A DNA stretch of 64,000 bases from Acutalibacteraceae bacterium (GTDB lineage: Bacteria; Bacillota; Clostridia; Oscillospirales; Acutalibacteraceae): NCBI GenBank assembly GCA_045606785.1, contig JAZUSN010000017.1, forward strand, positions 187 through 64,186, read 5' to 3'. Positions 123-62,499 of the stretch are shown piece by piece (positions within the stretch are counted from its first letter, which is position 1; each line of letters begins with the position of its first letter). Below the pieces are notes generated by a model. It ran no database searches, was not told the origin of the DNA, and saw nothing but the letters and a program-made list of their open reading frames with translations. Both the position numbers and the translations under genes were made by a program.

Positions 123-402
123 ACACTATATCCTCCTGCTTTTTTCACAATAATATCACAAAAGATTCAAAAACTTATTATAACTTAATTTTAGACTACT
201 TTAACACATTACAACAATAATTACAAGAAACAACAATATTGGATAATTATCTGTTTTGTTTCAGCAGCTTAAGTGGATTATATCAGGAGAAAGATATTCT
301 GAAGATTTGATTGACAAAAATATTTTAGAAAACCCGGAATTTAAAAACATTTTTCCGGAAAATTCGTTATTAGAGAACTCCCATAATAATACCGCTCCAC
401 AC

Positions 403-440
403 AAAAAAGGCAGCACTTTTCCGCGCTGCCGTTTTGTTTT
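403..440. terminator. Bidirectional rho-independent terminator
   Basis: Stem GGCAGC/GCTGCC, flanked by an A-run upstream and GTTTTGTTTT downstream. It lies just downstream of the minus-strand gene ending at 477. Confidence 0.6.
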
Positions 441-476
441 AATTAAGTTTTTATTTTAGGGAAACTAACGGAATTC

Positions 477-1949: not shown

Positions 1950-2008
1950 AGGTTTTTCCTCCTTGTTATGTAAATACAAATTGCTAAAGCATTAATATGA
2001 TTTTCGGT

Positions 2009-5193: not shown

Positions 5194-5402
5194 TCATCCT
5201 TTCAAAAAGCATAAGCTGATTATAAGATATATTACGGCATAAAGCAACAAAAATGATTTATTGATATATCCCATTAGCCGTGATAAAACCATTAAAATAA
5301 CAAGAAAGATATGAAATGATATCTTATGAGCTTATAACTGTACGAAAAATAAAAGCGCTGCCAACTTGAAATCAAGATCGTAGCGCTTTCGCTTTATTAT
5401 TT

Positions 5403-10140: not shown

Positions 10141-11760
10141 ATGAAACGATCCTTCAAGTTTACCGCACTGATTCTCACTTTGGCGATTATGCTGACTTCG
10201 CTGTGCGTTTTTGCATTTGCTCAGGACAGCAAAAACTACTATTACATCGACTCGGTTTCGGGTGACGATGCAAACAGCGGCTTAACGGAAAGCGAAGCTG
10301 TTAAGACGATCGCAGGCCTTAAAGACCTGCACATAGGCCCCGGAACGCACTTCCTTTTCAGAAGCGGCGGTGAATACGACTGTGCCGTAACACTCACCTG
10401 CAGCGGCACAAAAGACAACCCCGTGGTTATCTCGTCATACGGTGAAGGCGAAAAGCCCTTGCTTTATACAAATGATAATACAGAGGTCTTCAGGTTTTTC
10501 GACTGTTCATATCTCACGCTTTCAAACGTACATATCAAAGCTCCAAACGGCGGCGGAGTCTGGATAGATACGTATAATCAGACATCGGTAGGCATTACGA
10601 TAGACAACGTGTATTTTGAGGATATGCAAAACTACAAAGTACACTACCGTGACGATTTTTCAAACGGTGCAGCCCGCGCAAGAGCTGCAGTTATGGTTAA
10701 GGGTCTGCCCGCAAGATCACGCTACGCAGTAAACGACCTGACAATAACAAACTGTGAGGTTTATAACTGCGGTAACGGCTTTATGATCTGGGGCTCCTGG
10801 AACGACAGCCAGACACCCTGGTGCGAAACCGAAGAAGAGATCGACCCCATATACAACACCGGTATGCTCATTAAGGGCTGCTATTTCCACGAAATGGACG
10901 CCGAGGCTGTTGTTGTCGGCATGTGTGACGGCGCACTCGTTACCCATTGCCGCGCGATCAACTGCTGTCAGGGCGAGGGAGTTGACGAAAACGGCGAAAT
11001 CGAATATTTCACAGCCGCAATGTGGTTCTGGGGAAGCGAAAACAGTACAATACAGTACTGTGAGATCGCAGGACAGAAAAACGTCGGCGACGGAATGGCT
11101 GTTGACTTTGACTCACACACGAACAACTGCACATATCAGTACATCTACTCACACGACAATATGCGCTTTATGTGTAACAACCCCAATTACAGCGGTCACA
11201 GCGGCAACACCGTGAGGTACTGCCTCTCCGTCAACGACAACAAGGGCCGCTCAACAACAGCCGTAGGCGCTTGCGGCGAGCACAACTTCAGCTTTTACAA
11301 CAACACAATCATAAACTGCGGCGAATTCCAGTTCAAAAACCTTTATAACGCATACATCGCAAACAACGTTATCGTACCCATGCAGGGCTCTACTTTCGCT
11401 TATGACGTTGACTCCTCAAGAAACAACGTATTTGAAAACAACTGCTACTATAACGTCATTAATCCGCTCGTTGATTTGGGTGCACTCAACGTTCTGCCCG
11501 GCTTTGCAGGCACGGATTACACCAACCCCGAAAGCTTTAAACTCTCTGCAGACTCACCGCTCATCGGTGCCGGTGCTGCGACACACGGTGTTGAAACCGA
11601 CTTTTTCGGCAACAGCATTGAGAGTGTAAATATCGGCTGCTACGCAGGAACAGGCACAGACACGGAATATAAGCCTGAAGGATTTTTCGAAAGAATCATC
11701 CGCTTGATAAGAAACTTTTTTGAAACAATCAGACACGAAATCGCGGTTATATTCGACTGA
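10141..11760 (+). CDS. Secreted right-handed parallel beta-helix repeat protein (pectate-lyase fold) with amphipathic C-terminal tail
   Basis: Signal peptide MKRSFKFTALILTLAIMLTSLCVFAFA. Repeated N/C/G-rich beta-helix rungs (ITNCEVYNCGNGF, VTHCRAINCCQGEG). The tail is EGFFERIIRLIRNFFETIRHEIAVIFD. Confidence 0.8.
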   Translation: MKRSFKFTALILTLAIMLTSLCVFAFAQDSKNYYYIDSVSGDDANSGLTESEAVKTIAGLKDLHIGPGTHFLFRSGGEYDCAVTLTCSGTKDNPVVISSYGEGEKPLLYTNDNTEVFRFFDCSYLTLSNVHIKAPNGGGVWIDTYNQTSVGITIDNVYFEDMQNYKVHYRDDFSNGAARARAAVMVKGLPARSRYAVNDLTITNCEVYNCGNGFMIWGSWNDSQTPWCETEEEIDPIYNTGMLIKGCYFHEMDAEAVVVGMCDGALVTHCRAINCCQGEGVDENGEIEYFTAAMWFWGSENSTIQYCEIAGQKNVGDGMAVDFDSHTNNCTYQYIYSHDNMRFMCNNPNYSGHSGNTVRYCLSVNDNKGRSTTAVGACGEHNFSFYNNTIINCGEFQFKNLYNAYIANNVIVPMQGSTFAYDVDSSRNNVFENNCYYNVINPLVDLGALNVLPGFAGTDYTNPESFKLSADSPLIGAGAATHGVETDFFGNSIESVNIGCYAGTGTDTEYKPEGFFERIIRLIRNFFETIRHEIAVIFD

Positions 11761-12914: not shown

Positions 12915-12976
12915 ATATGTTTGACAAGCTTACCGAAAATGTTATAATAAGAAAAAAGAACTAAGGGTGATGAAAA

Positions 12977-38394: not shown

Positions 38395-39363
38395 TCATTC
38401 GTTGCTCTCGGCTCTGTGAGTTCCGTAATCCGGGTTACCGAACAAAGCTTTGAAAAAATCCGACACATACTCAAAAGAGTTTATCATTATAGCACCGCCG
38501 CCAACAGTACCCATACCGGGCACAATAATAAAAGCCAACAAACCCAATAAAAAATCTTTCGGAAATTCTTTCAAATTTCTTGTTGCAATTTTACGCTCTT
38601 TTTTAACTGCAACTTCTTCCGAAACAACTTCTATTGTCATTTCTTCTGTAAACACACCGTCCAAGTTTAACTGTATTACATATTTTCCGGGTTCTTCGGG
38701 AGTAAAACTATCCGAATCAATTTCTACTGTTTTTCCGTTTACCGTATACGAAAAAGTTGCTTCTTCAAGCCAACCCTTTCCGTAACCGCCGTTGCCGCCC
38801 TCGATTGATACCTCGATCGGTTTGCCGACTATTCCACAATAATTTATTATTCTCTCTTCAGAATCAGTCGGTTCTTCAGAAAACGCAACATAATTATATC
38901 GGCATCTAATATAAAAATTATTTGCATCTTTTACTCTTGAAGCGGGAATAACTAACTTTAAACTTTTATCTCCGTCAGCCGTTGCAAAAGCTCCGGCTGA
39001 AACTTCAACGCCCAGAATTTCCTCACAAAAATCCGTATTGATAATTATCTGTGGATAATGGAAATTGTTTTTCTCAAAAATCCTAATTTGGATTTTTTCT
39101 TCACTGACTTCAATATTTTCCGTAATTTGAGCATTTTCAGATGACCGAGTCTGAACAGTTATTTTCGGAATGTCACCTGACACTGAATATTTATTAGAGT
39201 AAGTTATAACAACCGTATCAAAATCAGAATAGTAATCACAACTGTAGGTTTTCTCAAGTTCTTCTGTCTGTGCGTCCTCCGCCGCAAAAGCTACGCTTGC
39301 TGTAGTGAAAAGAAGCACCGCACAAAGAATTACGGACATGATTCTCTTAAACTTTTTGTTCAT
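38395..39363 (-). CDS. Secreted protein with C-terminal TM region and FFKALFG tail
   Basis: Signal peptide MNKKFKRIMSVILCAVLLFTTASVAFAAED. C-terminus FLLGLLAFIIVPGMGTVGGGAIMINSFEYVSDFFKALFGNPDYG.... Confidence 0.75.
   Translation of the reverse strand: MNKKFKRIMSVILCAVLLFTTASVAFAAEDAQTEELEKTYSCDYYSDFDTVVITYSNKYSVSGDIPKITVQTRSSENAQITENIEVSEEKIQIRIFEKNNFHYPQIIINTDFCEEILGVEVSAGAFATADGDKSLKLVIPASRVKDANNFYIRCRYNYVAFSEEPTDSEERIINYCGIVGKPIEVSIEGGNGGYGKGWLEEATFSYTVNGKTVEIDSDSFTPEEPGKYVIQLNLDGVFTEEMTIEVVSEEVAVKKERKIATRNLKEFPKDFLLGLLAFIIVPGMGTVGGGAIMINSFEYVSDFFKALFGNPDYGTHRAESNE
39276..39363 (-). repeat. 88-bp signal-peptide cassette, copy B
   Basis: See 38259..38346. The offset between copies is 1017 bp. 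Confidence 0.85.
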
Positions 39364-39393: not shown

Positions 39394-39969
39394 TTATTTG
39401 CCGCCCAAATGCTCCAAAAGGAAGCCGGCAATTGCATCAAATACTTTGGGGCTTGTTTTCGGAAAAAGAGCTGACAGAAAACCTGCAGACAAGAAAGTAG
39501 AAAAAATGCCAAACATACTGAAAGATGCTATAATACCTTCAAAAAAGAGTTCGACCCTCTCGGTGAAAGGAACAGGCTCCAATATACGTATTTCGATAGT
39601 ATCGATAGCCATTATATTACCGTCAGTATCAAGAATCTGAAACCCTATGAAACAGCTTCCGTATGAAACAGCCTTAACCTCAGCCCCGCTGACCCCGCCT
39701 TTATCATCCGGAATAAAATTAACCTCACAACACTCGCCGTTTGCATAGTATTTTATTTCAAACGGCTCATCTGTCGGCGGGCACCAATCAATCTCAACAT
39801 AAGTTGTCTGCCCTATTTTCATATCCTTCCTCAAATTGGCAAAGCTTGCATCAACAGAAACATACGGCGGTTCTTTTTTGTCTGCAGCTGTTGAACTGAG
39901 CGGAAAAGCTGCCGCCAAAAGCAAAACGCACAACAAAACAGACAAAACCTTTTTTGATTTTTTTAACAT
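39394..39969 (-). CDS. Secreted Ig-like protein with C-terminal hydrophobic anchor
   Basis: Signal peptide MLKKSKKVLSVLLCVLLLAAAFPLSSTAAD. FIGFQILDTDGNIMAIDTIEI resembles TVTAKIIDANGNVIATDEL of the 37396 product. C-terminus IIASFSMFGIFSTFLSAGFLSALF.... Confidence 0.75.
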   Translation of the reverse strand: MLKKSKKVLSVLLCVLLLAAAFPLSSTAADKKEPPYVSVDASFANLRKDMKIGQTTYVEIDWCPPTDEPFEIKYYANGECCEVNFIPDDKGGVSGAEVKAVSYGSCFIGFQILDTDGNIMAIDTIEIRILEPVPFTERVELFFEGIIASFSMFGIFSTFLSAGFLSALFPKTSPKVFDAIAGFLLEHLGGK

Positions 39970-42812: not shown

Positions 42813-45800
42813 TCATGCAGTTGCAATCTGGTTAACTACCTGCTTGAGAAGTGCAGCGTCGTTAAGAAGAACTGCGTCTGCAGCATCAATAACACCGTCG
42901 TGGTTCGGGTCAGCAGCCATCTTCTCGTATTCGTTGAGACTGTTTGCCGAAAGAAGACCGTTATTGATCATTGTAACAAGGAATGAGTCGTTAGCATCGG
43001 TTGTACCGTTGCCGTCAAGGTCACCGTAGATGATTACGGTGTACTCAAGTCTGCAGGTTGTGCCATCCATAACCTTGATAACAGAACCTGTACCAAGTAC
43101 GGAATCCTCACACTGAATAGTACCTGTGCCGATAACCTCTGCATAGTAAGTCTTGAATGTGTCGAGTGTAAGCTCTTCAGCAAGACCGTAAACTATTCTC
43201 TTCTTTGTTTCAACAACTGTTGTTGAACCGTCTACGGGAGCAAGCTCACAGTCTGTTGTTGCAATGTCGAGAGAAACGAATGCGTTGGAAACGTCGGGAA
43301 CAAGGTTAACTGTATCAAGCTTGTATGCTGTACCGTTTTTAGTTACGCAAGCAACTGATGTGGGAACAGAATTTGCACTGTTTGTGGGAGACTTACAAAT
43401 TCTCTCATCAATGAAGATAAGACCGTCTGTAACAGCAGCATCAATACCTGTGTTAACAGTAAGCTTGAGTGTGAATACGTGTGTCTTCTCGTTTACGATA
43501 ACAGGAGCCTTCGCGCTTGTTGTTGCGAAGTTACCTGTAGTAATACGGGTACACTTGATATTATCGGGATTAAGCGGAACGTTATCCTCAAACTTGCTTG
43601 CCCAGTTAGTAGCAGAATAGTTTGTAGAACCTGACAAAGTTGTAGCTGCAAGTGATTTAATATAATCGGAAGTTGTGTTTGCAACAGTTGCATTTCTGAC
43701 GTTACCGGCAACTGTAAATACACGGTTATCAAACATAATACCGAAGATACCCTGGCCTGCATAGTAGTTTGTCTTTATGCTTACTTCAACCTCGATAGCG
43801 TCGCCTTCCTTGATGGATGTAGCGGGTACACGCTTGCCGTTGATTGTCTTGTAAACGTCGAGATAATAGTTACAGACTGTGTTAAGAGTCCAGACAGCTT
43901 CAACCGTAAGATTACCTGAAGGCATTGTCTTAAGGTCATAGGGCTGGCCGTTGAGAGTCCAACCGTCGAAGAGGTAGTTCTCCTTAGTGGGAGCTTCAAT
44001 GGAGATAGGTGTGCCGTAAGGAGCTGTGATAGCGTCGATTGCTGTGCCGCCGTCTGTATCAAAGTAAAGTGTGTATGTGTTTACACTGTACTGAGCATAG
44101 AGAGTGTGATGTGCATCAAGCTCTACAGGAACAGCTGATGTAACCTGATCGCCACCCTCGGGCTGTGTGAACCAGCCGATAAATGTGTGACCGTCCTTCT
44201 CGGGTGTGGGAAGCGGACCGTAGGTTGAGCCGTATGTTACGGAGTAAGCAGGTGTTGAAACCACGCCGTTCTCACCGGGATCAAGAGTGATGTCATATAC
44301 CTTCTCTGTCCAACCTGCGTAAACAAGCACTTCAGCATCCGAATCACCAAGGTCAGGCATTGTTGTGTATGATGCGGGCTGTGTGCAAGCAGTATCGTAA
44401 TACCAGCCTGTGAACGTATAGCCGTATCTTGTGGGAACAGGCATTTCGATTGCATCACCGTATTTAGCTGTAATAGCTTCACATGCTGAACCGAGACCTG
44501 AATCGAAGCGGAATGTGTAGCTTTCAACGTCACTCCAATGTGCGTAGAGATTCTCTACGTAGTTGATTGTAACGATGGTATCAGCAACGATCTGCTCGCC
44601 GCCTGTAGCATCGGAGAACCAACCGAGGAATGTATGACCGTCTCTTGTTGCAACGGGAAGCTCGCCGTACTCTACACCGTAGGTAAGCTCTTTGGATGTA
44701 ACATCAACAGAGCCACCGTTGGGATTAAAGTATGCATAGTAAGTAACGGGTGTGTAAGTGAAAGTTACTGTCTGCTCATCAGCAGAAAGTGTAACGGTCT
44801 GATACTGCTCTGTGGGCTCATAACCGGGATGAACGGGAGCAGTTACACGAACGACATATGTTCTTGTGCCGTCGTATGTCTGTGAACTGAGTACACGGTA
44901 GCCGCCGGCATAGCTTGCGTCCGGAGTCTGAGCGACGACTGTGTAACGTGCAGTCTTGAGAGTAAGACCGTCGATTGCGCTCTGGATAGAAGCAGCCATC
45001 TGATCAACCGCCGTCTGCCTGCTTGCAGGAAGATCATACTGAACAAGTGCGATAGCATTTGTAACATCGACGAATGAGTTATAGTTATCGGGATTAAGCT
45101 CGTTGACATATGCAACAAGTGCATAGATCTGAGAGTAATCTGCATAGGCACTTACAAGTGTATTAACTGCAAGCTCAATATTTTCGATAGCACGACTAAC
45201 TCTTGTCTGAGTAGCACTGGGATTAGCGAAAACTTCGAAAGCATTCTTGATAACAGAAACGTATGTTGTGAAGCCGCCGCTGTAATCAAATGCCTGCCTG
45301 TTCTTAGCCATTTCTCTTGCGAGAAGCGCACCAAGCTCATTCTTAACAGCTACGTGTTCGCCATCAGCTGAAGTGAGCACATAAACATATGTTGTGTAGG
45401 CTACGCCCAAGCACTCATATGTGATTTTGGCAGTAATTACGCTGCCTGTAGCACCTGTAGAAGTGATAGTTGCTGTATAGTAGCCATCATCCTGAAGTGC
45501 AAAATTTGATGAGATAACTGCGTTTTCAAGCTCAACAGCAATGTTTGTAAGCTCATTGGACGCAGCATCTTTGATTTGGATAACCGTGCTCTGACTGACA
45601 TTAACCGTACTTGCAGAACGGATATCAAGAGCAGATGCATAGTTAGTGTTGATAACTGTAAGACCTGCTTCAGCAGCAGCAAGAGCTGTTACTGCGTTGG
45701 CCTTTTCTTCTGCTGTGGCAGAAGTGTTGCTATTGACAAAAGTAGCGTTAGCAAGCGCTGCGGAATAGACAGCATATGATTCAGGTGTATATCTTGCTTC

Positions 45801-45947
45801 CGGGAAGGAATCATGATTATTGATCATATACTGAAGAACCGAAGCTGTGTAGCTTGCGGCATCAGCGACGATGCCGCAAGCGAGAGTACTAAATACAAGT
45901 GTCAATGCAATAAGAAAGCTTGTTAATCTTTTAAGTTTCATTTGCAT
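42813..45947 (-). CDS. Secreted multidomain protein: FIVAR-like helical repeats, Listeria-Bacteroides (Flg_new) repeats, beta domains, C-terminal type-I dockerin
   Basis: Signal peptide. Helical repeats such as YTPESYAVYSAALANA. Four repeats ending GHTFLGWF / GYTFTGWY / GHTFIGWF / NYLFDGW. Dockerin duplicated Ca-binding loops DLDGNGTTDANDSFLV and DPNHDGVIDAADAVLL. Confidence 0.85.
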   Translation of the reverse strand: MQMKLKRLTSFLIALTLVFSTLACGIVADAASYTASVLQYMINNHDSFPEARYTPESYAVYSAALANATFVNSNTSATAEEKANAVTALAAAEAGLTVINTNYASALDIRSASTVNVSQSTVIQIKDAASNELTNIAVELENAVISSNFALQDDGYYTATITSTGATGSVITAKITYECLGVAYTTYVYVLTSADGEHVAVKNELGALLAREMAKNRQAFDYSGGFTTYVSVIKNAFEVFANPSATQTRVSRAIENIELAVNTLVSAYADYSQIYALVAYVNELNPDNYNSFVDVTNAIALVQYDLPASRQTAVDQMAASIQSAIDGLTLKTARYTVVAQTPDASYAGGYRVLSSQTYDGTRTYVVRVTAPVHPGYEPTEQYQTVTLSADEQTVTFTYTPVTYYAYFNPNGGSVDVTSKELTYGVEYGELPVATRDGHTFLGWFSDATGGEQIVADTIVTINYVENLYAHWSDVESYTFRFDSGLGSACEAITAKYGDAIEMPVPTRYGYTFTGWYYDTACTQPASYTTMPDLGDSDAEVLVYAGWTEKVYDITLDPGENGVVSTPAYSVTYGSTYGPLPTPEKDGHTFIGWFTQPEGGDQVTSAVPVELDAHHTLYAQYSVNTYTLYFDTDGGTAIDAITAPYGTPISIEAPTKENYLFDGWTLNGQPYDLKTMPSGNLTVEAVWTLNTVCNYYLDVYKTINGKRVPATSIKEGDAIEVEVSIKTNYYAGQGIFGIMFDNRVFTVAGNVRNATVANTTSDYIKSLAATTLSGSTNYSATNWASKFEDNVPLNPDNIKCTRITTGNFATTSAKAPVIVNEKTHVFTLKLTVNTGIDAAVTDGLIFIDERICKSPTNSANSVPTSVACVTKNGTAYKLDTVNLVPDVSNAFVSLDIATTDCELAPVDGSTTVVETKKRIVYGLAEELTLDTFKTYYAEVIGTGTIQCEDSVLGTGSVIKVMDGTTCRLEYTVIIYGDLDGNGTTDANDSFLVTMINNGLLSANSLNEYEKMAADPNHDGVIDAADAVLLNDAALLKQVVNQIATA

Positions 45948-45988: not shown

Positions 45989-48900
45989 TTAGCCGATTCC
46001 CAGTACGTTGGATACAAAGAATCCGAAGATACGGCTTAAGAATGCCATAATCTGCTGGAAGAATGACTGCTCAACAGGCTGCTGTTCTGTGGGCGGTGTT
46101 ACGCCTGTATCTACATCAGCGCCGGAGTTTGTTTCTGTGTCGTTGGTTGTAACTCTTGACCAGCGAGCGTAAAGAGTTGAGTAGTAAAGTGTTGTAACCT
46201 TAACTGTCTCGTCAACCTTAATACCGCCGGAAAGCTTGTTGTACCAGCCGACAAACTCGAAACCGTTACGTGTGGGAACAGGAAGGTCAGCATATGTGCT
46301 ACCGTATGCAACGTTTGCTGTTACGGGATCAACCGTACCGCCGTTTGCGTTGAGTGTTACTCTGTAAACATCGGGTGCATAGTTAAACTCAACAACAACG
46401 CCGCCCTTTGTGATAGTAACGAGCTTTGCCTTATCTGTTGACTTATAGCCCATGATTTCGGGAACGTTAACAATAACCTTTTCACCGATATCACCGTAAA
46501 TAGTGTCTGTGCTGAGAAGGATAACCTGCGGAACCTCGTTGCCATCCTCATCGATTACTGTTGCGGGATGAAGAATGCCGGAATTGTCGTAGCAACGGAT
46601 GATGATACGATCCTGTGCGGGCTCAAGGTTATCAATAGCTGCCTGGAGGTTGTCAATAATCTCGTTAACGAGTGACTGCTGAAGAACATCCTGTGAGAAG
46701 TCAATGCTCTTAAGGATATCTGTAACAGGGCTGAAATCCTGATAATCTTCAGGATTGAGTGAATTTGCAATAGAGATGAGCTTGTGAAGCTCTTCGAAAT
46801 CAGCTGACTTGTACTCAAGCCAATCGATTGCTTCAAGAAGGTTGATGTTAGCCTCATCGATCTGAGCCTGTGTAACCATCGGGTTGTTGAGGACTGCAAC
46901 CGCTGCCTCAAGATCCTTCTTGTAGATATCCCAACCGCCTGAATAGAACCAATCTTGACGGCAAGAAGAGATAGCTGCATCAACTGTAGCGCGAAGCTGG
47001 CTCTTATCGTAAGCAATGACACGAAGGTAGAACTTCGGAGCGGAGTTTGTCTGACCGCCGTTTGTTGCTATAGCTGTAACTGTGGGAGTGATAAGAGTTG
47101 TAGCAGTCTCGCCTGCTGCGGGAAGATTACCGGAGAATGTGAAGTTTCTGGAATCATCCTGGTTGAGTGTTACACCGTAGGAAGACGGCTCAACAACAAC
47201 GTTGGGATCGGAGCTTGTAACGTCAACATTGATAGATGAGAAAACACCGGAACCGATATTACCTGCAGAATAAGAATCTGCCATCTTGGTAAACGTAAAC
47301 ATAAGACCGGGAATCTCTTGGTAGTATCTGTAGATACTGCGGTCTGCGTAAACCGTACCCATGGGAACAGTTGCAAGATCGCCTGCGTAACCAGACCAGT
47401 TGTGATCTACGTGGTAGTTAAGAACACCGCTGTAGTCTGTGGACTGGATTCCGTATACACCTAAATGATACTTATTACGGATGTAGCCGGGGTAGCATGT
47501 ATTAACGTCAAAGTTGATTTCGTAGTCGCCTGCAGATACGAACGTGTAAGCATATGCTGTGTATTCCATACCTGTTGAGGGCTGAGTAAATTTGATCGTA
47601 GCTGTGATTACTGAATAAAGGGTTGCAGCAGCAGGGTTAATCTCCCAGCAGTAGTAATCGCCTTCTTCATACATCTGGCCAATCGTTGCGCCGCCGTTTA
47701 CAGTTGCAGATACGTTAGTGATAGCTGCGCCTGTGGACTCACGGAACTTAAGGACAGTCGTTGTATCTCTGGAAACAACGTCATCGATAATGACTTCTGA
47801 ACCGAGCTCGTAGTTAAGCTCCCAGAATTCAAGGCTGTTGAGAGCTGTACCGAGTCTTTCAGATACTCCGTCAACGATGTACTGATCATCAAGGTCGTAG
47901 TCACGGTCAATTGCAAGAGCCTCAGCATAAGCTGCTTTGAACTCTGCGATAGAGTGTGTGGTATAGAGTCTATAATCCTCTTCGGGGATAGCTTCAGCTC
48001 TCTTTATCATAACATCAAGAACGTTATAGCGCGCAAGAGAGATGTAAGCCTTAAGTCTGTTCTGTGACTTGAAGAGCTCCTGTCTTGCGATAGAAATCGC
48101 AGACTGTTTAGCATTAGGATCTGCTGCTACCTTATAAGCGTTTGCAAGTGCTTCGCTGTAAAGTCTCCATGATCTGTCAGTATAGACCTTGTTGCCTGCG
48201 CCGTCATCGTTTGCTTTAGCGTTGTTTGCCTCTGCATAGTTGATCTCGTAAGCAAGCTGGATCTTACAGGTCTCTGATCTGGGAGTCATCTCATCGTAGT
48301 AGTAGCCGAGTCTGTAGTAAAGGTTTTTAATCTCAAGAGCTGTAACGGAGTTCGGATTTTCGTTATATCTCTCTACGAGACTTACACAGTCTGAATATGT
48401 GTCGTCAAAGTTGGTGAACTCGAAGAGGTATTCGTAATCCTCTTCGCCGTATGTGAAGTAGCCGTCATCACTGTATGACAGGCCATCGTTTGACGGCATA
48501 TACTGCTGCATGAGCGTCTGAAGGTCTCTCATAGTCTTATTGGGATAACCAACGGGAGCGTTAACTGTAAAGTTATCGTTCTGGCTGAGACCGATGAGTG
48601 AACCGATAAGCGGAATAAGTGTCGGGAAGTTGTAATCTCTTTCTGAGTAAAGAGCAGAGAGAAGGTTACCTGCAAACTGGCCGAGCTTGCCGCCCTTTGT
48701 TGAGCCGTAAACAAGATCCTCAAGGTTCTGTGTGCTTGCGGGGATGATCTCAAGGCCGTTCATAAGGCTTGAAAGGATACCGCCGAGAAGGTCGAGAACA
48801 AAGTTTACAACGGGCTGATTGAGGATAGCATCGGGAGAGGAGTTCTTACCGATGAAGCTGAGGATCTTCTCAATATTGAGTGTCTGAACACCGTCAAGAA

Positions 48901-50623
48901 TTGCGCCGACGATAAGGGACTCGGATACTGTATCGTGAGTCTTCTGAATCGTAGTGAGCGTGGGATCGAGAAGTGTGAAGATTGTAGCATCAAGCTTCTC
49001 CCAACCTGTCATACCTGCAAGGTTCTGTCTTGTGTTGAAGATGAAGCCGAACTCTGCAACAAGCCAGCTAGCAAGGCAATCAACCATCTCGTCGAAGCTT
49101 GCATCGAATGGAATGTTGATATCGATGAGTGAATTGAGGAGGTAGATGAGGTAATCAGTACCGATTTCAATCCAAGCACCGTTTTCGGGATCAAGTGTAC
49201 CGTCTTCGATCATGCCGTAGTAGTCATTCTCGGGAAGAAGGTCAATAACAAGGCTGATGAGTATATAAGTAAGACATTCCTGAATAGTATCGCAATCGGG
49301 AAGGAATCTGACGCCTGCGAAGAAGTCGATACCGGGAGCTATAAGCATAATGATGTAGGAAATGAACTGATCAGTTGTCCACTCCGTCATATCCGGGAAC
49401 TCCGCATCCTCGGGGATAACCTCGGGAAGAAGCATCTGAAGGAGACCGGGGCCAAGCTCACGGAGAAGGCTAACGATATTTGCATAAAGCTCATCGTTGA
49501 TATCAATACCGTGATCTGTGAAAGCGATAATGCTGTAAAGAGCAGCAGGCTTCTTGATAACGTTACCTGCATCATCCGTTACAGTCTCACCTGCAAGGAG
49601 CCATGTAAGGGCTTTTTCAAGCTCGATTACAGGGTACTCTTCTGCATCGTAGGGATAGCCGAGACCAAGGTAGTCGTTGATGATACCGATAATTGTGGGA
49701 AGAAGACCGGGCTCTGCAGGATTACCGTAGGGCCACTCTTCGCTTACTTCGATATCCAGAGTATCGGGAAGTGACTCAACAAGTGTGGGAACAAGGATGT
49801 CAACCATAAGTGAGTCGATAGCGTTCTGGATAAGGTCGTAAGTAGAGCCTGATGTGATAGAGGTCTTGCCTGCCATGCTGGGCAGGAAGCCGGAGTAAGA
49901 CTGAGTTGAAACGTTGTAATCGCCGATAAGGAGCTGATCAACAACATCCTGAAGCAAACCGTCGATAGTAAATGAATCAATGGTGACACCGGCGGGAAGA
50001 GTATCGATCTCAGGCTCTGACTCTGCTTTGAGAAGGCTGTTATATATCAATGTATATATCATTTCCTTAAGGAAAGCAGGTATGTGATACAGGAAGCCCA
50101 TATCCGGATCATCAGGCGGAATAACGAGCTCCATAATGCCGCCGAAATCAATCGTACCGTTTACAAGCTTCTCAAGTGTGGGTCTGTTGTCGCTGAGAAA
50201 CTCAAGAAGAGCATAGAAGACTTCGGAGTCTTTATGTGTTTTTCTTCTGGGCTCAACAATCGCAGACTCATCAAGGTCCTTGAGGTCACCGACAAGGCTG
50301 AGACCCTGTGCAAAGTTGACCAGACCCATATCGAGAAGGTCTGAAATTGACTGGAATGTGTTATCAACTGAAGTAAGGTTGATTCTGATAGTACCTAAGA
50401 TACTAAGGTCAATCTCCTCGTTGATATTGGCATCGTACAGCACTGTATCCAGGAAGTCGAGCAACATTGAGCAGGACTGCTCATATGTATAGTACGGCTT
50501 ACCCAGGCTGTCGTAGCCGGCGGGTGATGTGTACGCCTCATAAGCTGAAGCTGTGCTTGCCATTGACGTCGCAAGCATAACAGCAGCCAGGAGGATACAC
50601 ATCAGCTTTTTGACTTTTTTCAT
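45989..50623 (-). CDS. Giant (1544 aa) secreted protein: about 870-aa unrecognised helical N-terminal region, FIVAR-like repeats, one Flg_new repeat, T/P linker, amphipathic C-terminal tail
   Basis: Start chosen at MKKVKKLMCILLAAVMLATSMASTASA (ATG 50623, GGAGGTG RBS) rather than the ORF-track start at 50791. Flg_new repeat ...NGFEFVGWYNKLSGG. The tail is SFFQQIMAFLSRIFGFFVSNVLGIG. Confidence 0.85.
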   Translation of the reverse strand: MKKVKKLMCILLAAVMLATSMASTASAYEAYTSPAGYDSLGKPYYTYEQSCSMLLDFLDTVLYDANINEEIDLSILGTIRINLTSVDNTFQSISDLLDMGLVNFAQGLSLVGDLKDLDESAIVEPRRKTHKDSEVFYALLEFLSDNRPTLEKLVNGTIDFGGIMELVIPPDDPDMGFLYHIPAFLKEMIYTLIYNSLLKAESEPEIDTLPAGVTIDSFTIDGLLQDVVDQLLIGDYNVSTQSYSGFLPSMAGKTSITSGSTYDLIQNAIDSLMVDILVPTLVESLPDTLDIEVSEEWPYGNPAEPGLLPTIIGIINDYLGLGYPYDAEEYPVIELEKALTWLLAGETVTDDAGNVIKKPAALYSIIAFTDHGIDINDELYANIVSLLRELGPGLLQMLLPEVIPEDAEFPDMTEWTTDQFISYIIMLIAPGIDFFAGVRFLPDCDTIQECLTYILISLVIDLLPENDYYGMIEDGTLDPENGAWIEIGTDYLIYLLNSLIDINIPFDASFDEMVDCLASWLVAEFGFIFNTRQNLAGMTGWEKLDATIFTLLDPTLTTIQKTHDTVSESLIVGAILDGVQTLNIEKILSFIGKNSSPDAILNQPVVNFVLDLLGGILSSLMNGLEIIPASTQNLEDLVYGSTKGGKLGQFAGNLLSALYSERDYNFPTLIPLIGSLIGLSQNDNFTVNAPVGYPNKTMRDLQTLMQQYMPSNDGLSYSDDGYFTYGEEDYEYLFEFTNFDDTYSDCVSLVERYNENPNSVTALEIKNLYYRLGYYYDEMTPRSETCKIQLAYEINYAEANNAKANDDGAGNKVYTDRSWRLYSEALANAYKVAADPNAKQSAISIARQELFKSQNRLKAYISLARYNVLDVMIKRAEAIPEEDYRLYTTHSIAEFKAAYAEALAIDRDYDLDDQYIVDGVSERLGTALNSLEFWELNYELGSEVIIDDVVSRDTTTVLKFRESTGAAITNVSATVNGGATIGQMYEEGDYYCWEINPAAATLYSVITATIKFTQPSTGMEYTAYAYTFVSAGDYEINFDVNTCYPGYIRNKYHLGVYGIQSTDYSGVLNYHVDHNWSGYAGDLATVPMGTVYADRSIYRYYQEIPGLMFTFTKMADSYSAGNIGSGVFSSINVDVTSSDPNVVVEPSSYGVTLNQDDSRNFTFSGNLPAAGETATTLITPTVTAIATNGGQTNSAPKFYLRVIAYDKSQLRATVDAAISSCRQDWFYSGGWDIYKKDLEAAVAVLNNPMVTQAQIDEANINLLEAIDWLEYKSADFEELHKLISIANSLNPEDYQDFSPVTDILKSIDFSQDVLQQSLVNEIIDNLQAAIDNLEPAQDRIIIRCYDNSGILHPATVIDEDGNEVPQVILLSTDTIYGDIGEKVIVNVPEIMGYKSTDKAKLVTITKGGVVVEFNYAPDVYRVTLNANGGTVDPVTANVAYGSTYADLPVPTRNGFEFVGWYNKLSGGIKVDETVKVTTLYYSTLYARWSRVTTNDTETNSGADVDTGVTPPTEQQPVEQSFFQQIMAFLSRIFGFFVSNVLGIG

Positions 50624-50911
50624 AAAAAAGCACCTCCATAGATTTTGCTGGTTTGCGTCGGGCAGGAATGCCTCTATGTACAAACTAATAGCAAATACCG
50701 ATACCACTAGGTATACAGTTATACTATTATGCATAGTGATTGTATCATAAGATTTATGCAAATGCAAGTTAAATAGCAATAAAAAAATCAAATTTTTTAC
50801 AAAAAATTGTACATTGTGTTAAGTTAGAATTATCATTACCACAAAATATAGTAATCTGTCGGAATACAGACACATTTCATTTCATCCAAGCTGTTACAAA
50901 TCACTAACGTC

Positions 50912-53021: not shown

Positions 53022-53711
53022 ATGCTTTTTGAACTTATCAGCACCGTGTTTTCAAACGTGATGTATTTTGCGCTGCACATCCGCAACGCAAACTCATTTC
53101 CGAAGCCACTAAGCGCAAAAGAAGAGCGGCTTTGCTTCGAGAAAATGAAGGAGGGAGACAAGCAGGCAGCGCAAAAGCTGGTTGAACACAACCTCAGGCT
53201 AGTTGCCCACGTAACCAAAAAATACTACTCTCTTACCGCAGACAGCGATGACCTTGTTTCCATCGGCACAATCGGGCTCATAAAGGCGGTAAACTCATTT
53301 GACATAAACAAAGGCGCACGCTTTGCAACCTATGCCGCACGCTGCATCGAAAACGAAACGCTTATGTACCTTAGAAGTATGAAGAAAGCCTCACAGGATA
53401 TTTCGATAAACGACCCTATCGAATCGGACGGAGAAGGCAATCCCCTCACCTACAGCGATGTAATTTACGAAGATGATACCATTGCAGACGATATTGACCT
53501 GAGCGAAAAAACAAAAAGAATATACGATTTTGTCGAAAATATGAAAAACAAGGCAGAAAAAGAAATCATAATATGCCGCTACGGTCTGTACAACACAAAA
53601 CCGCTGACACAACGTGAGGTTGCGCAGCGGTTAGGTATATCAAGGTCATATGTATCACGCATTGAAAAAAGGATACTTGAGCGTATGCGCGAATTTATGG
53701 AAAATCAATGA
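53022..53711 (+). CDS. sigK: Sporulation sigma factor K (pro-sigma-K), uninterrupted
   Basis: Pro-sequence followed by NANSFPKPLSAKEE...GDKQAAQKLVEHNLRLVAHVTKKY...SIGTIGLIKAVNSF...ATYAARCIENE closely follows SigK. The GxxxARxxLIEHNLRLVAH type distinguishes it from SigE. Confidence 0.85.
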   Translation: MLFELISTVFSNVMYFALHIRNANSFPKPLSAKEERLCFEKMKEGDKQAAQKLVEHNLRLVAHVTKKYYSLTADSDDLVSIGTIGLIKAVNSFDINKGARFATYAARCIENETLMYLRSMKKASQDISINDPIESDGEGNPLTYSDVIYEDDTIADDIDLSEKTKRIYDFVENMKNKAEKEIIICRYGLYNTKPLTQREVAQRLGISRSYVSRIEKRILERMREFMENQ

Positions 53712-55219: not shown

Positions 55220-55402
55220 ATGAAATACAATCACAGCGAAGAAAAGCGTTCGAAGCTGTCAAACAACGAAATTGAAGATGACGTATTTGATATGGTAAAC
55301 AAATACGGTACGTATAACATTCAGCCGACAAACGACACGGATAACACATTCCCTGCAATTGCACAGGGGCTTGCAAAAAAGCACCGCAGAAAACACAAAT
55401 AA
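55220..55402 (+). CDS. Small hydrophilic protein, function unknown
   Basis: 60 aa: MKYNHSEEKRSKLSNNEIEDDVFDMVNKYGTYNIQPTNDTDNTFPAIAQGLAKKHRRKHK. GGGTGA RBS and a downstream hairpin. No family recognised. Confidence 0.5.
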   Translation: MKYNHSEEKRSKLSNNEIEDDVFDMVNKYGTYNIQPTNDTDNTFPAIAQGLAKKHRRKHK

Positions 55403-55457
55403 AAAACAAAGAAGCCTCCGTTTGCACGGAAGCTTTTTGCATTTCTGTTCGCGATGA

Positions 55458-55607
55458 TTATGCAGAAATCATACCGATAAGATCCTTAACAGCAGCGACA
55501 ATCTTATCAACGATGCCGGACTCCTGAATCTTAGTTACGATCTCCTTAACTGTTGCGATAACCTCTTCCCAGTTGATCTCCTTGAGCATTTCCATGATCT
55601 GATCCAT
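55458..55607 (-). CDS. Leaderless 49-aa acidic amphipathic peptide (paralog 1)
   Basis: MDQIMEMLKEINWEEVIATVKEIVTKIQESGIVDKIVAAVKDLIGMISA. GGAGGTGAAA RBS. The internal ATG at 55607 is preferred over the ORF-track start at 55673. Confidence 0.7.
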   Translation of the reverse strand: MDQIMEMLKEINWEEVIATVKEIVTKIQESGIVDKIVAAVKDLIGMISA

Positions 55608-55644
55608 TACGATTTCACCTCCGTAAAACATGTTTGCATAATGG

Positions 55645-55673
55645 ATTATAGCACCTATTACAAAATTTGTCAA
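55645..55673 (-). promoter_or_regulatory. Consensus sigma-A promoter for peptide paralog 1
   Basis: The minus strand reads TTGACA-aattttgtaataggtgc-TATAAT, with perfect hexamers and a 17-nt spacer. Confidence 0.75.
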
Positions 55674-55763
55674 ATAAAAATTTAATAATTTCTTAAAAAA
55701 ACAACGACGGCCTGCACAAGCGCAGACCGCCAGAATGTGTAATGTAGGTTTTAAACAAAGAAA

Positions 55764-55901
55764 TTATGCAAAGAGACCCTGGAAAAAGCTGATGATTGCC
55801 TCAACAACACCTGAATCCTTAATCATACCTACGATGTCAGCAGCCTTACCTTCGTTAAGGAAGTTAAGAAGCTCCTCTACAAATGCGAGAATCTGATCCA
55901 T
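55764..55901 (-). CDS. Leaderless 45-aa acidic amphipathic peptide (paralog 2)
   Basis: MDQILAFVEELLNFLNEGKAADIVGMIKDSGVVEAIISFFQGLFA. GGAGGTGAAA RBS. An imperfect hairpin plus T-run lies downstream at about 55700..55745. Confidence 0.7.
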   Translation of the reverse strand: MDQILAFVEELLNFLNEGKAADIVGMIKDSGVVEAIISFFQGLFA

Positions 55902-55935
55902 TATTTTCACCTCCTGCATCTTCTGAAGTAATTTT

Positions 55936-55964
55936 ATTATAGACAAATTTTACGTTCGTGTCAA
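55936..55964 (-). promoter_or_regulatory. Consensus sigma-A promoter for peptide paralog 2
   Basis: The minus strand reads TTGACA-cgaacgtaaaatttgtc-TATAAT, with perfect hexamers and a 17-nt spacer. Confidence 0.75.
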
Positions 55965-56033
55965 CGCGTTGTTAACAAATTATTAACGCCAGAAGTAACA
56001 GTGAAGTAAAAACAAAGCAAAATCTTACTGATT

Positions 56034-57338
56034 TCAATGTTTTCTCTTTAAATCTCCGTTTGCAGGGTTATCCAGCACCGTGCCGTGCTCGTCAAAACGC
56101 GAGCCGTGGCAAGGGCAATCCCACGAGTGCTCTGCCCTGTTCCACTTGAGCGAACAGCCTAAATGCGGACAGCGTTTGCCCGTAAGCCCCGCAAAACCTA
56201 CCACCGATTCAGCTGCATTTATAAGCAGTTGAGAATTCAGCATACTTCTGTCGGGTGTAAAAAGCGGTGAATACTCGTTCTTATTTTCTGTCACACAGTC
56301 GCACAGCAGTTTAGCTGCAACCATTCCACCCGTAACACCCCATTTATTAAAACCGCTCGCAACAAAAAGCCTGTGAGTATTTGCGGAATAACCGCCTATA
56401 TACGGCACAGAGTCAAGGCTCATACAGTCTTGCGCCGCCCAATGTGCAACCTCCGCAGATGATTTATAGTGTTCTGCGGCAAACCGGCGAAGTTCTGCCC
56501 AGTTTCCGCCGGTTTTACCGGTACGGTGGCTGCCGCCGCCAAGCAGCAGCAAACCGCCGTAATTACGGAAAGAAAGGCCGTTTTTATCTTCATCCACATA
56601 CATACCGTCAAGCTGCTGAGCATTCTCCAGCGCAAGCACATAGGAGCGATGCTGATAGAGCTTGATAGAATAAAGACCGTGCTTATTGATAAACGGAAAG
56701 TGGGTTGTAACTATAACATTCTCAGCGCGGATGACCGCTTTATCGGTAACTGCGGTATTTCCTTTCATTTCACGCACAAAGGTATTTTCATAAATATTGA
56801 GATTTTTCGCAATCGCACCGAGAAACTTCAGCGGATGAAACTGAGCCTGCTCACCAAAGACCACCGCGCCTGCTATATCAATCGGTAACGGTAAAATATC
56901 GGAAAATTTTGCTTTACACCCCATTTTTAAAAGCGCTGACATTTCCTTCTCCAGCACCTCTCTGTCAGACACAGAGTAGACGTAGTTGTCTTTTGTTTCA
57001 AAGTCGCAGTCAATGCCCCTGCAAAGCCTTTTGTATTCAGCAAGAGCATCTTCATTTGCACGGTAATACGCATAAGCTTTTTCCGCACCGTATTTTTTAA
57101 ACAATTTACTGTAAATCAAACCGTGCTGTGATGTGATTTTTGCGGTCGTATTCTGAGTTGTGCCGCTGCAGATTCTGTTTTTTTCAACAAGAATATACCG
57201 CACTCCCCTGCCGTGCAGAAAATATGCCGTCAACAAGCCTGCTATACCGCCGCCTATTATCAACACGTCGGTTTTCACTTCGCCCTCAAGTGTCGGAAAC
57301 GACGGCATTTCAACATCTTTACGCCACAACGACTCCAT
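56034..57338 (-). CDS. FAD-dependent oxidoreductase fused to a C-terminal Rieske [2Fe-2S] domain (YhfW-like)
   Basis: DVLIIGGGIAGL dinucleotide-binding motif. Rieske motifs CPHLGC...CPCHGS. Start taken at MESLWRKD (57338), behind GAGGTGA. Confidence 0.8.
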   Translation of the reverse strand: MESLWRKDVEMPSFPTLEGEVKTDVLIIGGGIAGLLTAYFLHGRGVRYILVEKNRICSGTTQNTTAKITSQHGLIYSKLFKKYGAEKAYAYYRANEDALAEYKRLCRGIDCDFETKDNYVYSVSDREVLEKEMSALLKMGCKAKFSDILPLPIDIAGAVVFGEQAQFHPLKFLGAIAKNLNIYENTFVREMKGNTAVTDKAVIRAENVIVTTHFPFINKHGLYSIKLYQHRSYVLALENAQQLDGMYVDEDKNGLSFRNYGGLLLLGGGSHRTGKTGGNWAELRRFAAEHYKSSAEVAHWAAQDCMSLDSVPYIGGYSANTHRLFVASGFNKWGVTGGMVAAKLLCDCVTENKNEYSPLFTPDRSMLNSQLLINAAESVVGFAGLTGKRCPHLGCSLKWNRAEHSWDCPCHGSRFDEHGTVLDNPANGDLKRKH

Positions 57339-57384
57339 AAAGATCACCTCAAATAAAAATTTTATTCTATTTTGTGACATAAAG

Positions 57385-57415
57385 ACAAAAAAATACAGCC
57401 TCAAAAGAGGCTGTA
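57385..57415 (-). terminator. Rho-independent terminator after glyA
   Basis: TACAGCCTC / GAGGCTGTA stem followed by a T-run on the minus strand. Confidence 0.8.
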
Positions 57416-61518: not shown

Positions 61519-62499
61519 TTAGACGATGTTACTGATGATAATAAATGCAAAATAAGCCAACGCAAGAACCATCGGTATTGAAACGAAGAAACCGAACGTT
61601 CTCCTGCGCGTACTCAGACCCGATTCATCGCGCCGCATCTTCAGGCCGTACCTTCTGCCATAAGCGACCAGAGCAATAATACCTGCCGCAACAACTCCGA
61701 TACATGCGATGTTGTATATGATGTAACTCACATCGGGAACGGCATATTCCAGCTCGGTAAAGAACACAGAAAAACCGTTATTGAGAGCGTGAATGATAAT
61801 GCCGACCCAAAGGCTGCGCGAATACACAACCGCACAACCTATCACAAAGCCTGCCAAGGATGCAAAAACAATATTGGCCGGACGAACGTGAGCAAGGCCA
61901 AAAAGCACAGAGGTAGCAATGACCGCGAAAAAATCGCCGTAACGCCTGAGCGGCTGCATAAGAACACCGCGGAACACGAACTCCTCAACCAAAGGAGCAA
62001 TAACCGCAGCACAGACAAAATCCATTACGACGTCGAGCGCGTTGGTTGAAGGAACAGGCTGCGGAGTGTAGCCGCCTATACCGATAAGGTCAAACAAGGT
62101 GCCGACAATGTTGGCAATATAGTTTGAAGCGATGCAGAAGCCGAAGCCTGCTGCAATCAGCAGCACAGCTTTGTCAAAGGAAATCGGAGTATGAAACGGG
62201 AGAGCTTTGAAATATGAAAGCCTGCCTCTTTTTTTGCTGTAGAGCCAGAAAGGTAGACCAAGCGAGATAACCGTAAAGAACAAGCCGCCCGACGCATACT
62301 GAAAAGCAGGGTTGCTGTAATACGCATCCACAAGACCGAACAGCTTAAGAAAAACGAACAGAACCTCCTGCAAGGCGAAGTAGCCGAGCAGGCACCAGCC
62401 TGCAACAGCGCTGTGCTTGCGAAGAGTGCGGTATCTTTCGCGTGACGGGTCGGGAGAGAGCGGAGCCGCATAAACAAATTCCTGTGCCATATGCGTCAC
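61519..62499 (-). CDS. CPBP-family intramembrane glutamic endopeptidase (CAAX protease-like)
   Basis: APLVEEFVFRGVLM, FGLAH and HALNN motifs in a polytopic protein. Confidence 0.85.
   Translation of the reverse strand: MTHMAQEFVYAAPLSPDPSRERYRTLRKHSAVAGWCLLGYFALQEVLFVFLKLFGLVDAYYSNPAFQYASGGLFFTVISLGLPFWLYSKKRGRLSYFKALPFHTPISFDKAVLLIAAGFGFCIASNYIANIVGTLFDLIGIGGYTPQPVPSTNALDVVMDFVCAAVIAPLVEEFVFRGVLMQPLRRYGDFFAVIATSVLFGLAHVRPANIVFASLAGFVIGCAVVYSRSLWVGIIIHALNNGFSVFFTELEYAVPDVSYIIYNIACIGVVAAGIIALVAYGRRYGLKMRRDESGLSTRRRTFGFFVSIPMVLALAYFAFIIISNIV

Follow-up and report, generated by a model that had tools for sequence, protein, structure and literature searches.

Two tandem genes of an undescribed family

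In a 64 000-nt stretch of DNA from an Acutalibacteraceae bacterium (contig JAZUSN010000017.1; the whole stretch is called the window below) we characterized two adjacent small genes of the minus strand, pep2 followed by pep1. Gene pep2 extends from the ATG at 55901 to the stop codon at 55764 and codes for 45 aa plus stop (MDQILAFVEELLNFLNEGKAADIVGMIKDSGVVEAIISFFQGLFA); gene pep1 extends from 55607 (ATG) to 55458 (stop) and codes for 49 aa plus stop (MDQIMEMLKEINWEEVIATVKEIVTKIQESGIVDKIVAAVKDLIGMISA). The two genes are real and paralogous and, together with a third subfamily, they make up a small-protein family that has been neither described nor named. As to function, we tentatively prefer the possibility that the products are abundant leaderless, self-associating amphipathic peptides, which would act at the membrane or envelope interface in the manner of the β-type phenol-soluble modulins (PSM-beta) of staphylococci, probably as a pair, with pep2 probably tuned by an envelope-type regulator.

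The original prediction, made from the letters of the window, had placed two tandem leaderless open reading frames (ORFs) of 45 and 49 aa here, and both were found where it had put them. It had also named longer frames, starting at 55673 and 55946, as the ones that might prove conserved. This turned out not to be so: both starts fall inside promoters (55673 is the TTG of the −35 box of pep1, 55946 is a TTG in the promoter spacer of pep2), and the in-frame extension upstream of the ATG, which differs among orthologues, is not conserved. Since its length ranges from 4 to 55 codons between species, the short ORFs are the conserved units; the longer ones are artefacts of ORF calling.

The ratio of nonsynonymous to synonymous substitution rates (dN/dS, Nei-Gojobori) was 0.33 for pep1, 0.09-0.15 for pep2 and 0.09 for the third subfamily, i.e. 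the coding frames are under purifying selection. One could still argue that the loci produce small RNAs or contain chance ORFs and that nothing is translated; the ORFs are short and NCBI annotation offers nothing beyond ‘hypothetical protein’ for the orthologues, some of which are not called as genes at all. Against this stand the dN/dS values of 0.09-0.33 in the proposed frame, a strong ribosome site at a fixed distance from the ATG, and a length and helix pattern conserved over three subfamilies; also, the leaders are unstructured and Rfam gave no match across the whole window. We regard a non-coding explanation as essentially excluded.

The peptides had been described as related copies, and we saw that they are true paralogues: pep1 and pep2 are 30% identical over 44 residues (BLASTP E = 2e-5), and alignment of the two subfamily profiles by hhalign gave a probability of 96.4% over 48 columns. 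The family alignment shows a common M-D-(Q)-I start, an (E/D)-S-G-(I/V) turn whose Ser is near-invariant, and a periodicity of apolar residues.

Distribution of the family

A word-indexed search of 5.8 billion proteins returned 14 relatives of pep1 (71-100% identity) and 10 relatives of pep2 (64-98% identity), all of 45-49 aa and all from metagenomes or metagenome-assembled genomes (MAGs). Among 1.84 billion cluster representatives, a search with the family profile gave 21 matches, ∼17 of them small peptides of 37-89 aa. The family is thus narrow, with ∼17 species and ∼17 clusters at 50% identity among the 1.8 billion representatives.

Scanning one genome per GTDB species with an alignment of pep1 sequences as the query, we found the family in 17 species, all represented by MAGs labelled Acutalibacteraceae or ‘Clostridia bacterium’; where the record title names a host, it is the hindgut of cattle, sheep or goat. 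A scan of JGI metagenomes added three further short contigs only. Its range does not extend beyond a clade of ruminant-gut Acutalibacteraceae/Clostridia, and all carriers are uncultured.

The order pep2, then pep1 was seen in 11 of the 17 species, as well as in further metagenome contigs; the remaining species (6 of 17) have a single gene of the third subfamily, 53 aa long (MDFTAILNTVVEAVKGIDWEKVIATVKDIVEKIIPIITDKVVPVITDLIGKIA). Other arrangements were found as well. A more distant MAG (L039, GCA_024404095.1) carries three tandem family genes of 49, 53 and 45 aa at 5366..6138, each with its own promoter of TTGACA-17-TGnTAATAT type. In locus L037 a 41-aa short form is paired with a 52-aa member (197..689), and in one 79-aa protein (P0039) the short form is duplicated internally. 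The third subfamily and the three-gene array are found in unrelated gene contexts.

Expression signals

Each gene was predicted to have its own promoter, ribosome site and terminator; these are present, and the monocistronic layout is kept across species. The pep2 promoter (55936..55964, minus strand) and the pep1 promoter (55645..55673, minus strand) both match TTGACA-17-TATAAT in 12 of 12 positions; the latter has in addition a TGn extended −10, and an A+T-only tract precedes its −35 box. These two are the only exact matches to TTGACA-17-TATAAT on either strand of the window, with 0.01 expected from dinucleotide shuffles; with the spacer widened to 16-18 nt one more consensus promoter match appears, at 12921.

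The ribosome-binding sites, GGAGGTGA in both genes, lie 5 nt before the ATG of pep2 (55907..55914, minus strand) and 7 nt before the ATG of pep1 (55615..55622, minus strand). Intrinsic terminators follow on the same strand. That of pep2 occupies 55695..55732 (hairpin 55732..55705), with a 12-bp stem including 7 GC pairs and a T-run; that of pep1, a GC-rich hairpin with a T-run, occupies 55402..55435 (hairpin 55435..55412). The pep1 hairpin is a predicted terminator on the plus strand too (55417..55430), where it would serve a convergent 60-aa ORF.

Conservation of the signals was scored over 39 listed copies (fetched loci and the window). The promoter matches the consensus at 12 of 12 positions in 30 of these copies and at 10-11 in the remainder; among the 15 pep2 upstream regions listed, 13 score 12/12 (spacer of 17 or 18 nt) and one scores 11/12. 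The GGAGG core of the ribosome site is kept in all listed copies of pep1 and pep2 type, mostly as GGAGGTGA, and a hairpin with a T-run is found downstream of nearly all 39 copies. No feature of the family is better conserved than these expression signals.

The leaders are A-rich, 33-40 nt long and essentially unstructured (predicted folding energies of 0 to −5 kcal/mol), so we dropped the idea of a 5′ stabilizing hairpin or a riboswitch in them. The codon usage of the peptide genes is strongly skewed in the same direction as that of glyA: AAG makes up 98% of Lys codons (63% in the long genes of the window), and the codons GCC, GCG, GTG, CTG and ACG are unused. Promoter, ribosome site, leader and codon bias together point to what would be very high expression.

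Direct repeats upstream of pep2

The original prediction spoke of ‘very high constitutive expression’. The sequence signals for strong expression are indeed there; the word ‘constitutive’, however, is called into question by conserved repeats upstream of pep2. Two direct-repeat pairs were found on the minus strand in conserved positions: a distal one, TTTTAC-N5-TGTTAC (55995..56011), which is a candidate response-regulator site, and a proximal one, CGTTAA-N5-TGTTAA (55972..55988), in helical phase with the −35 box.

In an alignment of 14 distinct orthologous pep2 promoters the sites are fixed at 47 and 24 nt upstream of the start of the −35 box. The pattern TGTWAH-N5-TGTWAH (with at most one mismatch) occurs 1.43 times per 68-nt region, compared with 0.018 in shuffled sequences; the half-sites are spaced 11-12 bp and stay in phase with the −35 box, and one locus (L011) has a perfect TGTTAC-N5-TGTTAC. 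In spacing and half-site the repeats look like the boxes of OmpR-family regulators, among them WalR and PhoP of Bacillus, and less like a LytTR site. Because conserved phased repeats resemble a response-regulator site, pep2 may be regulated rather than purely constitutive. Such repeats were not seen upstream of pep1 in the clade of the window. An attempt to extend the same pattern to a window-wide regulon was abandoned; the pattern is too degenerate (20 matches compared with 11 expected).

Properties of the peptides

Both peptides had been called acidic (about −4 and −5), and by residue count the net charge is −4 for pep1 and −5 for pep2 (−2 to −6 across the family); the isoelectric points (pI) are 4.44 and 4.05, respectively, with a family range of 4.05-4.72. 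As to the claimed lack of a signal peptide, no Sec signal is visible on inspection, the MDQI... N-termini having neither a basic n-region nor a hydrophobic h-region. The grand average of hydropathy (GRAVY) is positive, +0.45 for pep1 and +0.79 for pep2, with apolar fractions of 0.53 and 0.58, and the mean helical hydrophobic moment is ∼2 standard deviations above that of shuffled sequences. In both peptides the uncharged stretches are too short to span a membrane. Cys and His are absent from the 29 distinct sequences of the family, and Arg occurs once.

AlphaFold2 (AF2) models built from the family alignment place helices at residues 2-9, 13-28 and 33-48 of pep1 (per-residue confidence score, pLDDT, 72.4) and at residues 2-16, 20-30 and 32-44 of pep2 (pLDDT 64.7); each peptide is thus predicted to consist of three short amphipathic helices.

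Three more specific ideas about the sequences were rejected. The near-invariant Ser30 might be a phosphopantetheine site of the kind found in acyl carrier proteins, but that fold needs a longer peptide, and neither the third subfamily nor the short forms have the Ser, whose more probable role is to cap a helix at its N-terminus. For pep2, a double-glycine leader (…NEG|K; such leaders have ∼15-24 aa before a GG/GA cleavage motif) was dismissed, as the GG is unconserved in the alignment and no transporter of the ATP-binding cassette (ABC) type with a C39 peptidase is present in the flanks. For a type I toxin peptide, which would come with an overlapping antisense RNA gene, a membrane-spanning uncharged stretch is missing, Rfam gives no match, and the ribosome site is strong and open.

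The original prediction did not recognize the family, and none of the libraries searched has a name for the peptides. There was no significant match for pep1 or pep2 in Pfam, NCBIfam, PHROGs or PADLOC, and none for the third subfamily in Pfam, PHROGs or PADLOC; an example of library noise is PSM-alpha at E = 4.7 and 0.011. The family profile picked up just HEAT/alphaRep repeats and Cmr4 among PDB sequences (E ≥ 0.08), and Foldseek found no match in PDB for either AF2 model. In the literature searched, peptides of this type are not described for Clostridia or Acutalibacteraceae.

Several proteins with apparent profile matches were rejected as relatives. Protein P0025, matched at E = 2.5e-58, belongs to the insect allergen repeat proteins (PF06757), and its total score is high because 14 near-identical weak repeat matches are summed; a single repeat compared with the library has E of about 5-10. 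The last two helices of the repeat (...VQELVQKLRDHGIDVDKIVDFFKSIFGW) do align with family helices 2-3 over 35 columns with 40% identity (hhalign 80%), a match picked after the fact from 1.8 billion proteins, and the PF06757 model does not match pep1 or pep2. We treat the likeness as convergence of an amphipathic helix-turn-helix; what the peptides have in common with these allergens (Bla g 1-type lipid-binding helical capsules) is this local element only. The scores of P0041 and P0042 (HEAT-like repeats) and of P0036 (another repeat type) were likewise sums of many weak repeat matches.

Similarity to beta-type phenol-soluble modulins

The system that the peptides resemble most in design is PSM-beta. 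PSM-beta peptides are 44 aa long, compared with 45-49 aa here; both kinds begin at the initiator Met and have no signal or leader peptide (here by inspection); both are amphipathic with several helices (predicted here); both are net negative with pI 4-5, and GRAVY and hydrophobic moment are near the values of Staphylococcus aureus PSM-beta1. Both have an acidic-(S/N)-G-(V/I) turn ahead of the last helix and a hydrophobic Phe-rich C-terminus, and in both cases the genes are tandem paralogues. The PSM exporter Pmt is encoded away from the psm genes.

There are differences as well. The host belongs to a strictly anaerobic gut clade of Clostridia and not to Staphylococcus. The charge by residue count is −4 to −5 here and about −1 in PSM-beta1. 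Each of our genes has a consensus sigma-A promoter and a terminator of its own, whereas staphylococcal PSM genes are directly controlled by AgrA (PMC7872022). PSMs, which have no signal peptide and retain N-formyl-Met, form a large share of secreted protein and leave the cell by the dedicated exporter Pmt (PMC7872022); for pep1 and pep2, export and activity are proposed.

Taking these features together, one could envision the following. Each gene would be built for heavy expression, yielding abundant pep1 and pep2. The monomers would expose excess apolar surface, and the peptides would self-associate, probably as a pep2/pep1 pair. They would partition to the membrane or to other apolar interfaces at the cell envelope, acting like a surfactant, as PSM-beta peptides do. 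Release would require an unlinked exporter or cell lysis, and an OmpR/WalR-type response regulator, bound at the phased repeats ahead of the −35 box, may in addition adjust pep2 expression. We infer the abundance, the pairing, the interface activity, the export and the binding of a regulator.

Several observations weigh against this proposal. No homology to PSM-beta was detected: with a reference set of 58 sequences, all belonging to PF05480, of which the 26 full-length ones were aligned, hhalign gave 0.13% and 0.21% for the family against these 26, and PF05480 was unmatched by the peptides in hmmscan even at E ≤ 10. This is a real negative, because the same method returned the high value for pep1 against pep2 reported above, which serves as a positive control; the likeness to PSM-beta is one of design, not of descent. 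The Foldseek comparison with PDB did not return PSM-beta2 (5kgz), which by sequence is in the library, the models being short and of moderate confidence (pLDDT 65-72, predicted template modelling score 0.35-0.41). With a net charge of −4 to −5, the peptides would be expected to bind less well to the anionic membranes of bacteria. Furthermore, no ABC exporter, immunity or processing gene was found within 4-10 kb of the genes in the window, in loci L001-L033 or in L039, and no exporter, immunity or processing gene was seen among the ORFs of the window scanned against Pfam; the neighbours are housekeeping genes (a gyrB-like gene and glyA), uninformative on function.

Some of the same facts would fit abundant acidic proteins that stay in the cytoplasm: soluble helical bundles, with a buried apolar core and acidic on the surface, that would bind, chaperone or regulate some intracellular partner in stoichiometric amounts. 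This explanation, itself no better than tentative, is nearly as likely as the PSM-like one, because nothing indicates export and the acidity disfavours anionic lipid. Besides the absence of a signal peptide, and of a linked exporter in any locus, it gains from the conserved housekeeping site beside glyA and the gyrB-like gene, from the spacing of apolar positions by 3-4 residues, typical of helical bundles (seen in the sequence and the AF2 helices), and from the MD(Q)I N-terminus, invariant in both paralogues, which fits a specific protein contact. On the other hand, for a soluble protein of 5 kDa both the apolar share (53-58%) and the GRAVY, which is positive, are high; monocistronic paralogues in tandem, each under a maximal promoter, would be expected of bulk structural or secreted peptides sooner than of regulators; the FFxxLF(G/A) end recalls membrane-targeting helices; and no partner gene is conserved alongside.

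If their abundance is what the signals suggest, the peptides would rank with the major gene products of these uncultured ruminant-gut bacteria, and they would be a second, independently evolved case of leaderless amphipathic peptides of PSM type. This would be relevant to the way in which Gram-positive anaerobes shape the envelope, leave plant particles or spread over them, or interact with neighbours and host. If the peptides are cytoplasmic, we would be dealing with an abundant small protein that has no known counterpart. The two promoter and ribosome-site cassettes are compact and portable expression signals for Oscillospirales. The family, real, unnamed and narrowly distributed, is well suited to follow-up; leaderless amphipathic peptides are a kind already known.

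Genomic neighbourhood and the bacteriocin alternative

The chromosomal site of the pair is fixed: a gyrB-like gene, glyA, a variable insert, then pep2 and pep1. The insert is a flavin adenine dinucleotide/Rieske oxidoreductase gene in the window (56034..57404) and, in some other species, a gene for a leucine-rich repeat protein on the opposite strand. Downstream, in the window and its closest relatives, are the convergent 60-aa ORF, a DcuC-family carrier, a sporulation-type sigma factor and a major facilitator superfamily transporter. In nine other species (L018, L019, L022-L027 and L001) the pair is followed by a multi-pass membrane protein of ∼240 aa, a secreted protein of 116 aa and a fucosidase; in L022, for example, the first two are at 4292..5011 and 5121..5471, on the same strand as the pair. 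The 116-aa secreted protein is acidic, has F-rich amphipathic segments and ends in ...LLAFLMGFLG; homology of it to the peptides was rejected (hhalign 0.8%). The membrane protein, which is unannotated, and the 116-aa protein are absent from the window. No gene for an exporter, for immunity, for a protease or for modification accompanies the peptide genes from locus to locus.

A leaderless two-peptide bacteriocin like enterocin L50A/B, exported unprocessed and killing competitors, would also be made from two tandem paralogous leaderless peptides of ∼45 aa that start with Met and carry strong expression signals. The likeness to this class (IId) extends to helical, hydrophobic peptides in tandem and, according to PMC6131525, leaderless bacteriocins are similar in size, fMet-bearing and helical. 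One more fact in favour is that a protease of CPBP/Abi type, a class often tied to bacteriocin immunity, is encoded 5.6 kb away (61519..62499).

Nonetheless, we consider a bacteriocin very unlikely. The original prediction had already set the peptides apart from cationic leaderless bacteriocins, and rightly so: the pI values of 4.05-4.44 (4.0-4.7 and charge −2 to −6 for the family) contrast with pI >10 and positive charge in the visible table rows of PMC6131525. Characterized leaderless bacteriocins come with secretion and immunity genes (PMC6131525); here, over 17 species, neither a transporter nor an immunity gene is found next to the pair. The genes are under purifying selection and occupy a fixed chromosomal site, not a mobile or variable island; tblastn against phages and plasmids and the IMG/VR viral scan found no relatives of the peptides. 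The bacteriocin models of Pfam and NCBIfam were unmatched, with nothing relevant at E ≤ 10. Finally, four unrelated genes separate the CPBP gene from the pair, and the CPBP gene itself is part of a conserved housekeeping block.

The latter gene (61519..62499, minus strand) codes for a CPBP/Rce1-like intramembrane protease (PF02517). It shares the conserved block in L011 too; a deaminase gene, the gyrB-like gene, glyA and the oxidoreductase gene intervene before the pair.

C-terminal tails of secreted proteins

According to the original prediction, the C-terminus of pep2 echoes an FFxxLFG tail motif of secreted proteins in the window. As a 7-residue motif, the match stands; as a sign of homology it does not, since the best per-domain scores of the peptide profile on the tails are <0 bits and any relationship of the peptides to the tails of secreted proteins is undetectable. 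Window ORFs of at least 40 aa (66 831 residues) contain F[FL]xx[LI]F[GA] at four places, each time no more than 13 residues from the C-terminus; the carriers are three proteins with signal peptides, encoded on the minus strand at 477..1979, 38395..39363 and 45989..50791, plus pep2. The tail motif is real and position-specific, and a matching end is kept in pep2-type peptides of other species (FFKGLFA, FFKSIFEMFA).

The pep2 end and the tails have what we take to be the form of amphipathic membrane-targeting helices, such as the ...FLKRLFGG end of MinD. By motif counting, the F-(F/L)-x-x-(L/I)-F-G form of the C-terminal anchors of MinD and PBP5/6 is present in pep2-type ends (FFxGLFA, FFKSIFEMFA) and in window tails (FFSKLFG, FFKALFG, FLSRIFG). 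Those anchors are short appendages of larger proteins, usually with basic flanks, whereas here the motif closes a free acidic peptide of 45 aa. The resemblance would fit binding at an interface, without demonstrating a functional link.

One could speculate that the peptides are free partners of the amphipathic tails, co-assembling with them on the outer side of the membrane and helping to hold or organize tail-anchored exoproteins. The restriction of F[FL]xx[LI]F[GA] to the ends of three signal-peptide proteins and pep2 among window ORFs speaks for such a role, as does the F-rich small secreted protein (...LLAFLMGFLG) that, with a multi-pass membrane protein, follows the pair in nine species. 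Yet the tails are undetected by the peptide profile, the small secreted protein fails the hhalign comparison given above, and the downstream secreted/membrane gene pair is missing from the window; the motif is short and generic for ends of amphipathic helices, and a leaderless peptide lacks a route out of the cell. We see a partnership with the tails as speculative and distinctly improbable. A broader scenario appears improbable too: a first PSM-like system outside staphylococci, in which strictly anaerobic gut Clostridia would make paired, leaderless acidic surfactant peptides in bulk, partly under WalR/PhoP-type envelope control, and these would act on the outer side of the membrane with an undescribed class of exoproteins anchored by FFxxLFG amphipathic C-terminal tails.

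Phe-rich amphipathic ends are seen in several signal-peptide proteins of the window (...ANFFSKLFGL..., ...DFFKALFGN..., ...AFLSRIFGFF... and ...GFFERIIRLIRNFFETI...), and Phe-rich ends are found as well in the products of 10141..11760 (plus strand) and 39394..39969 (minus strand). No Pfam or NCBIfam model covers the tails; they could be in-plane membrane anchors at the C-terminus, characteristic of this clade. The N-terminal 60 residues of the protein encoded at 38395..39363 have a sub-threshold match to the NCBIfam ‘BLB8/JUQZ-1 family protein’ (E = 4e-4; 20.5 bits compared with a cut-off of 40), a match that probably reflects the signal-peptide region only.

Other genes of the window

The convergent 60-aa ORF (55220..55402, plus strand; MKYNHSEEKRSKLSNNEIEDD...KKHRRKHK) and pep1 have one hairpin in common, a terminator read from both sides. 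Gene calls in the closest relatives (L006-L010) include this ORF, for which there is no family match.

The gene at 53022..53711 (plus strand) codes for a sigma-70-family factor with regions 2 and 4. Its N-terminal extension and the ...NSFPKPLSAKEE... segment are, we presume, typical of pro-sigma-E/K of sporulating Firmicutes. The promoters of pep1 and pep2 are, in contrast to this sporulation-type factor, of the vegetative sigma-A type.

On the minus strand, 42813..45947 and 45989..50791 encode very large secreted proteins, both with Listeria-Bacteroides repeats. The former has a type I dockerin at its end, suggesting a surface system like a cellulosome or an amylosome; the latter has a FIVAR domain and an amphipathic tail.

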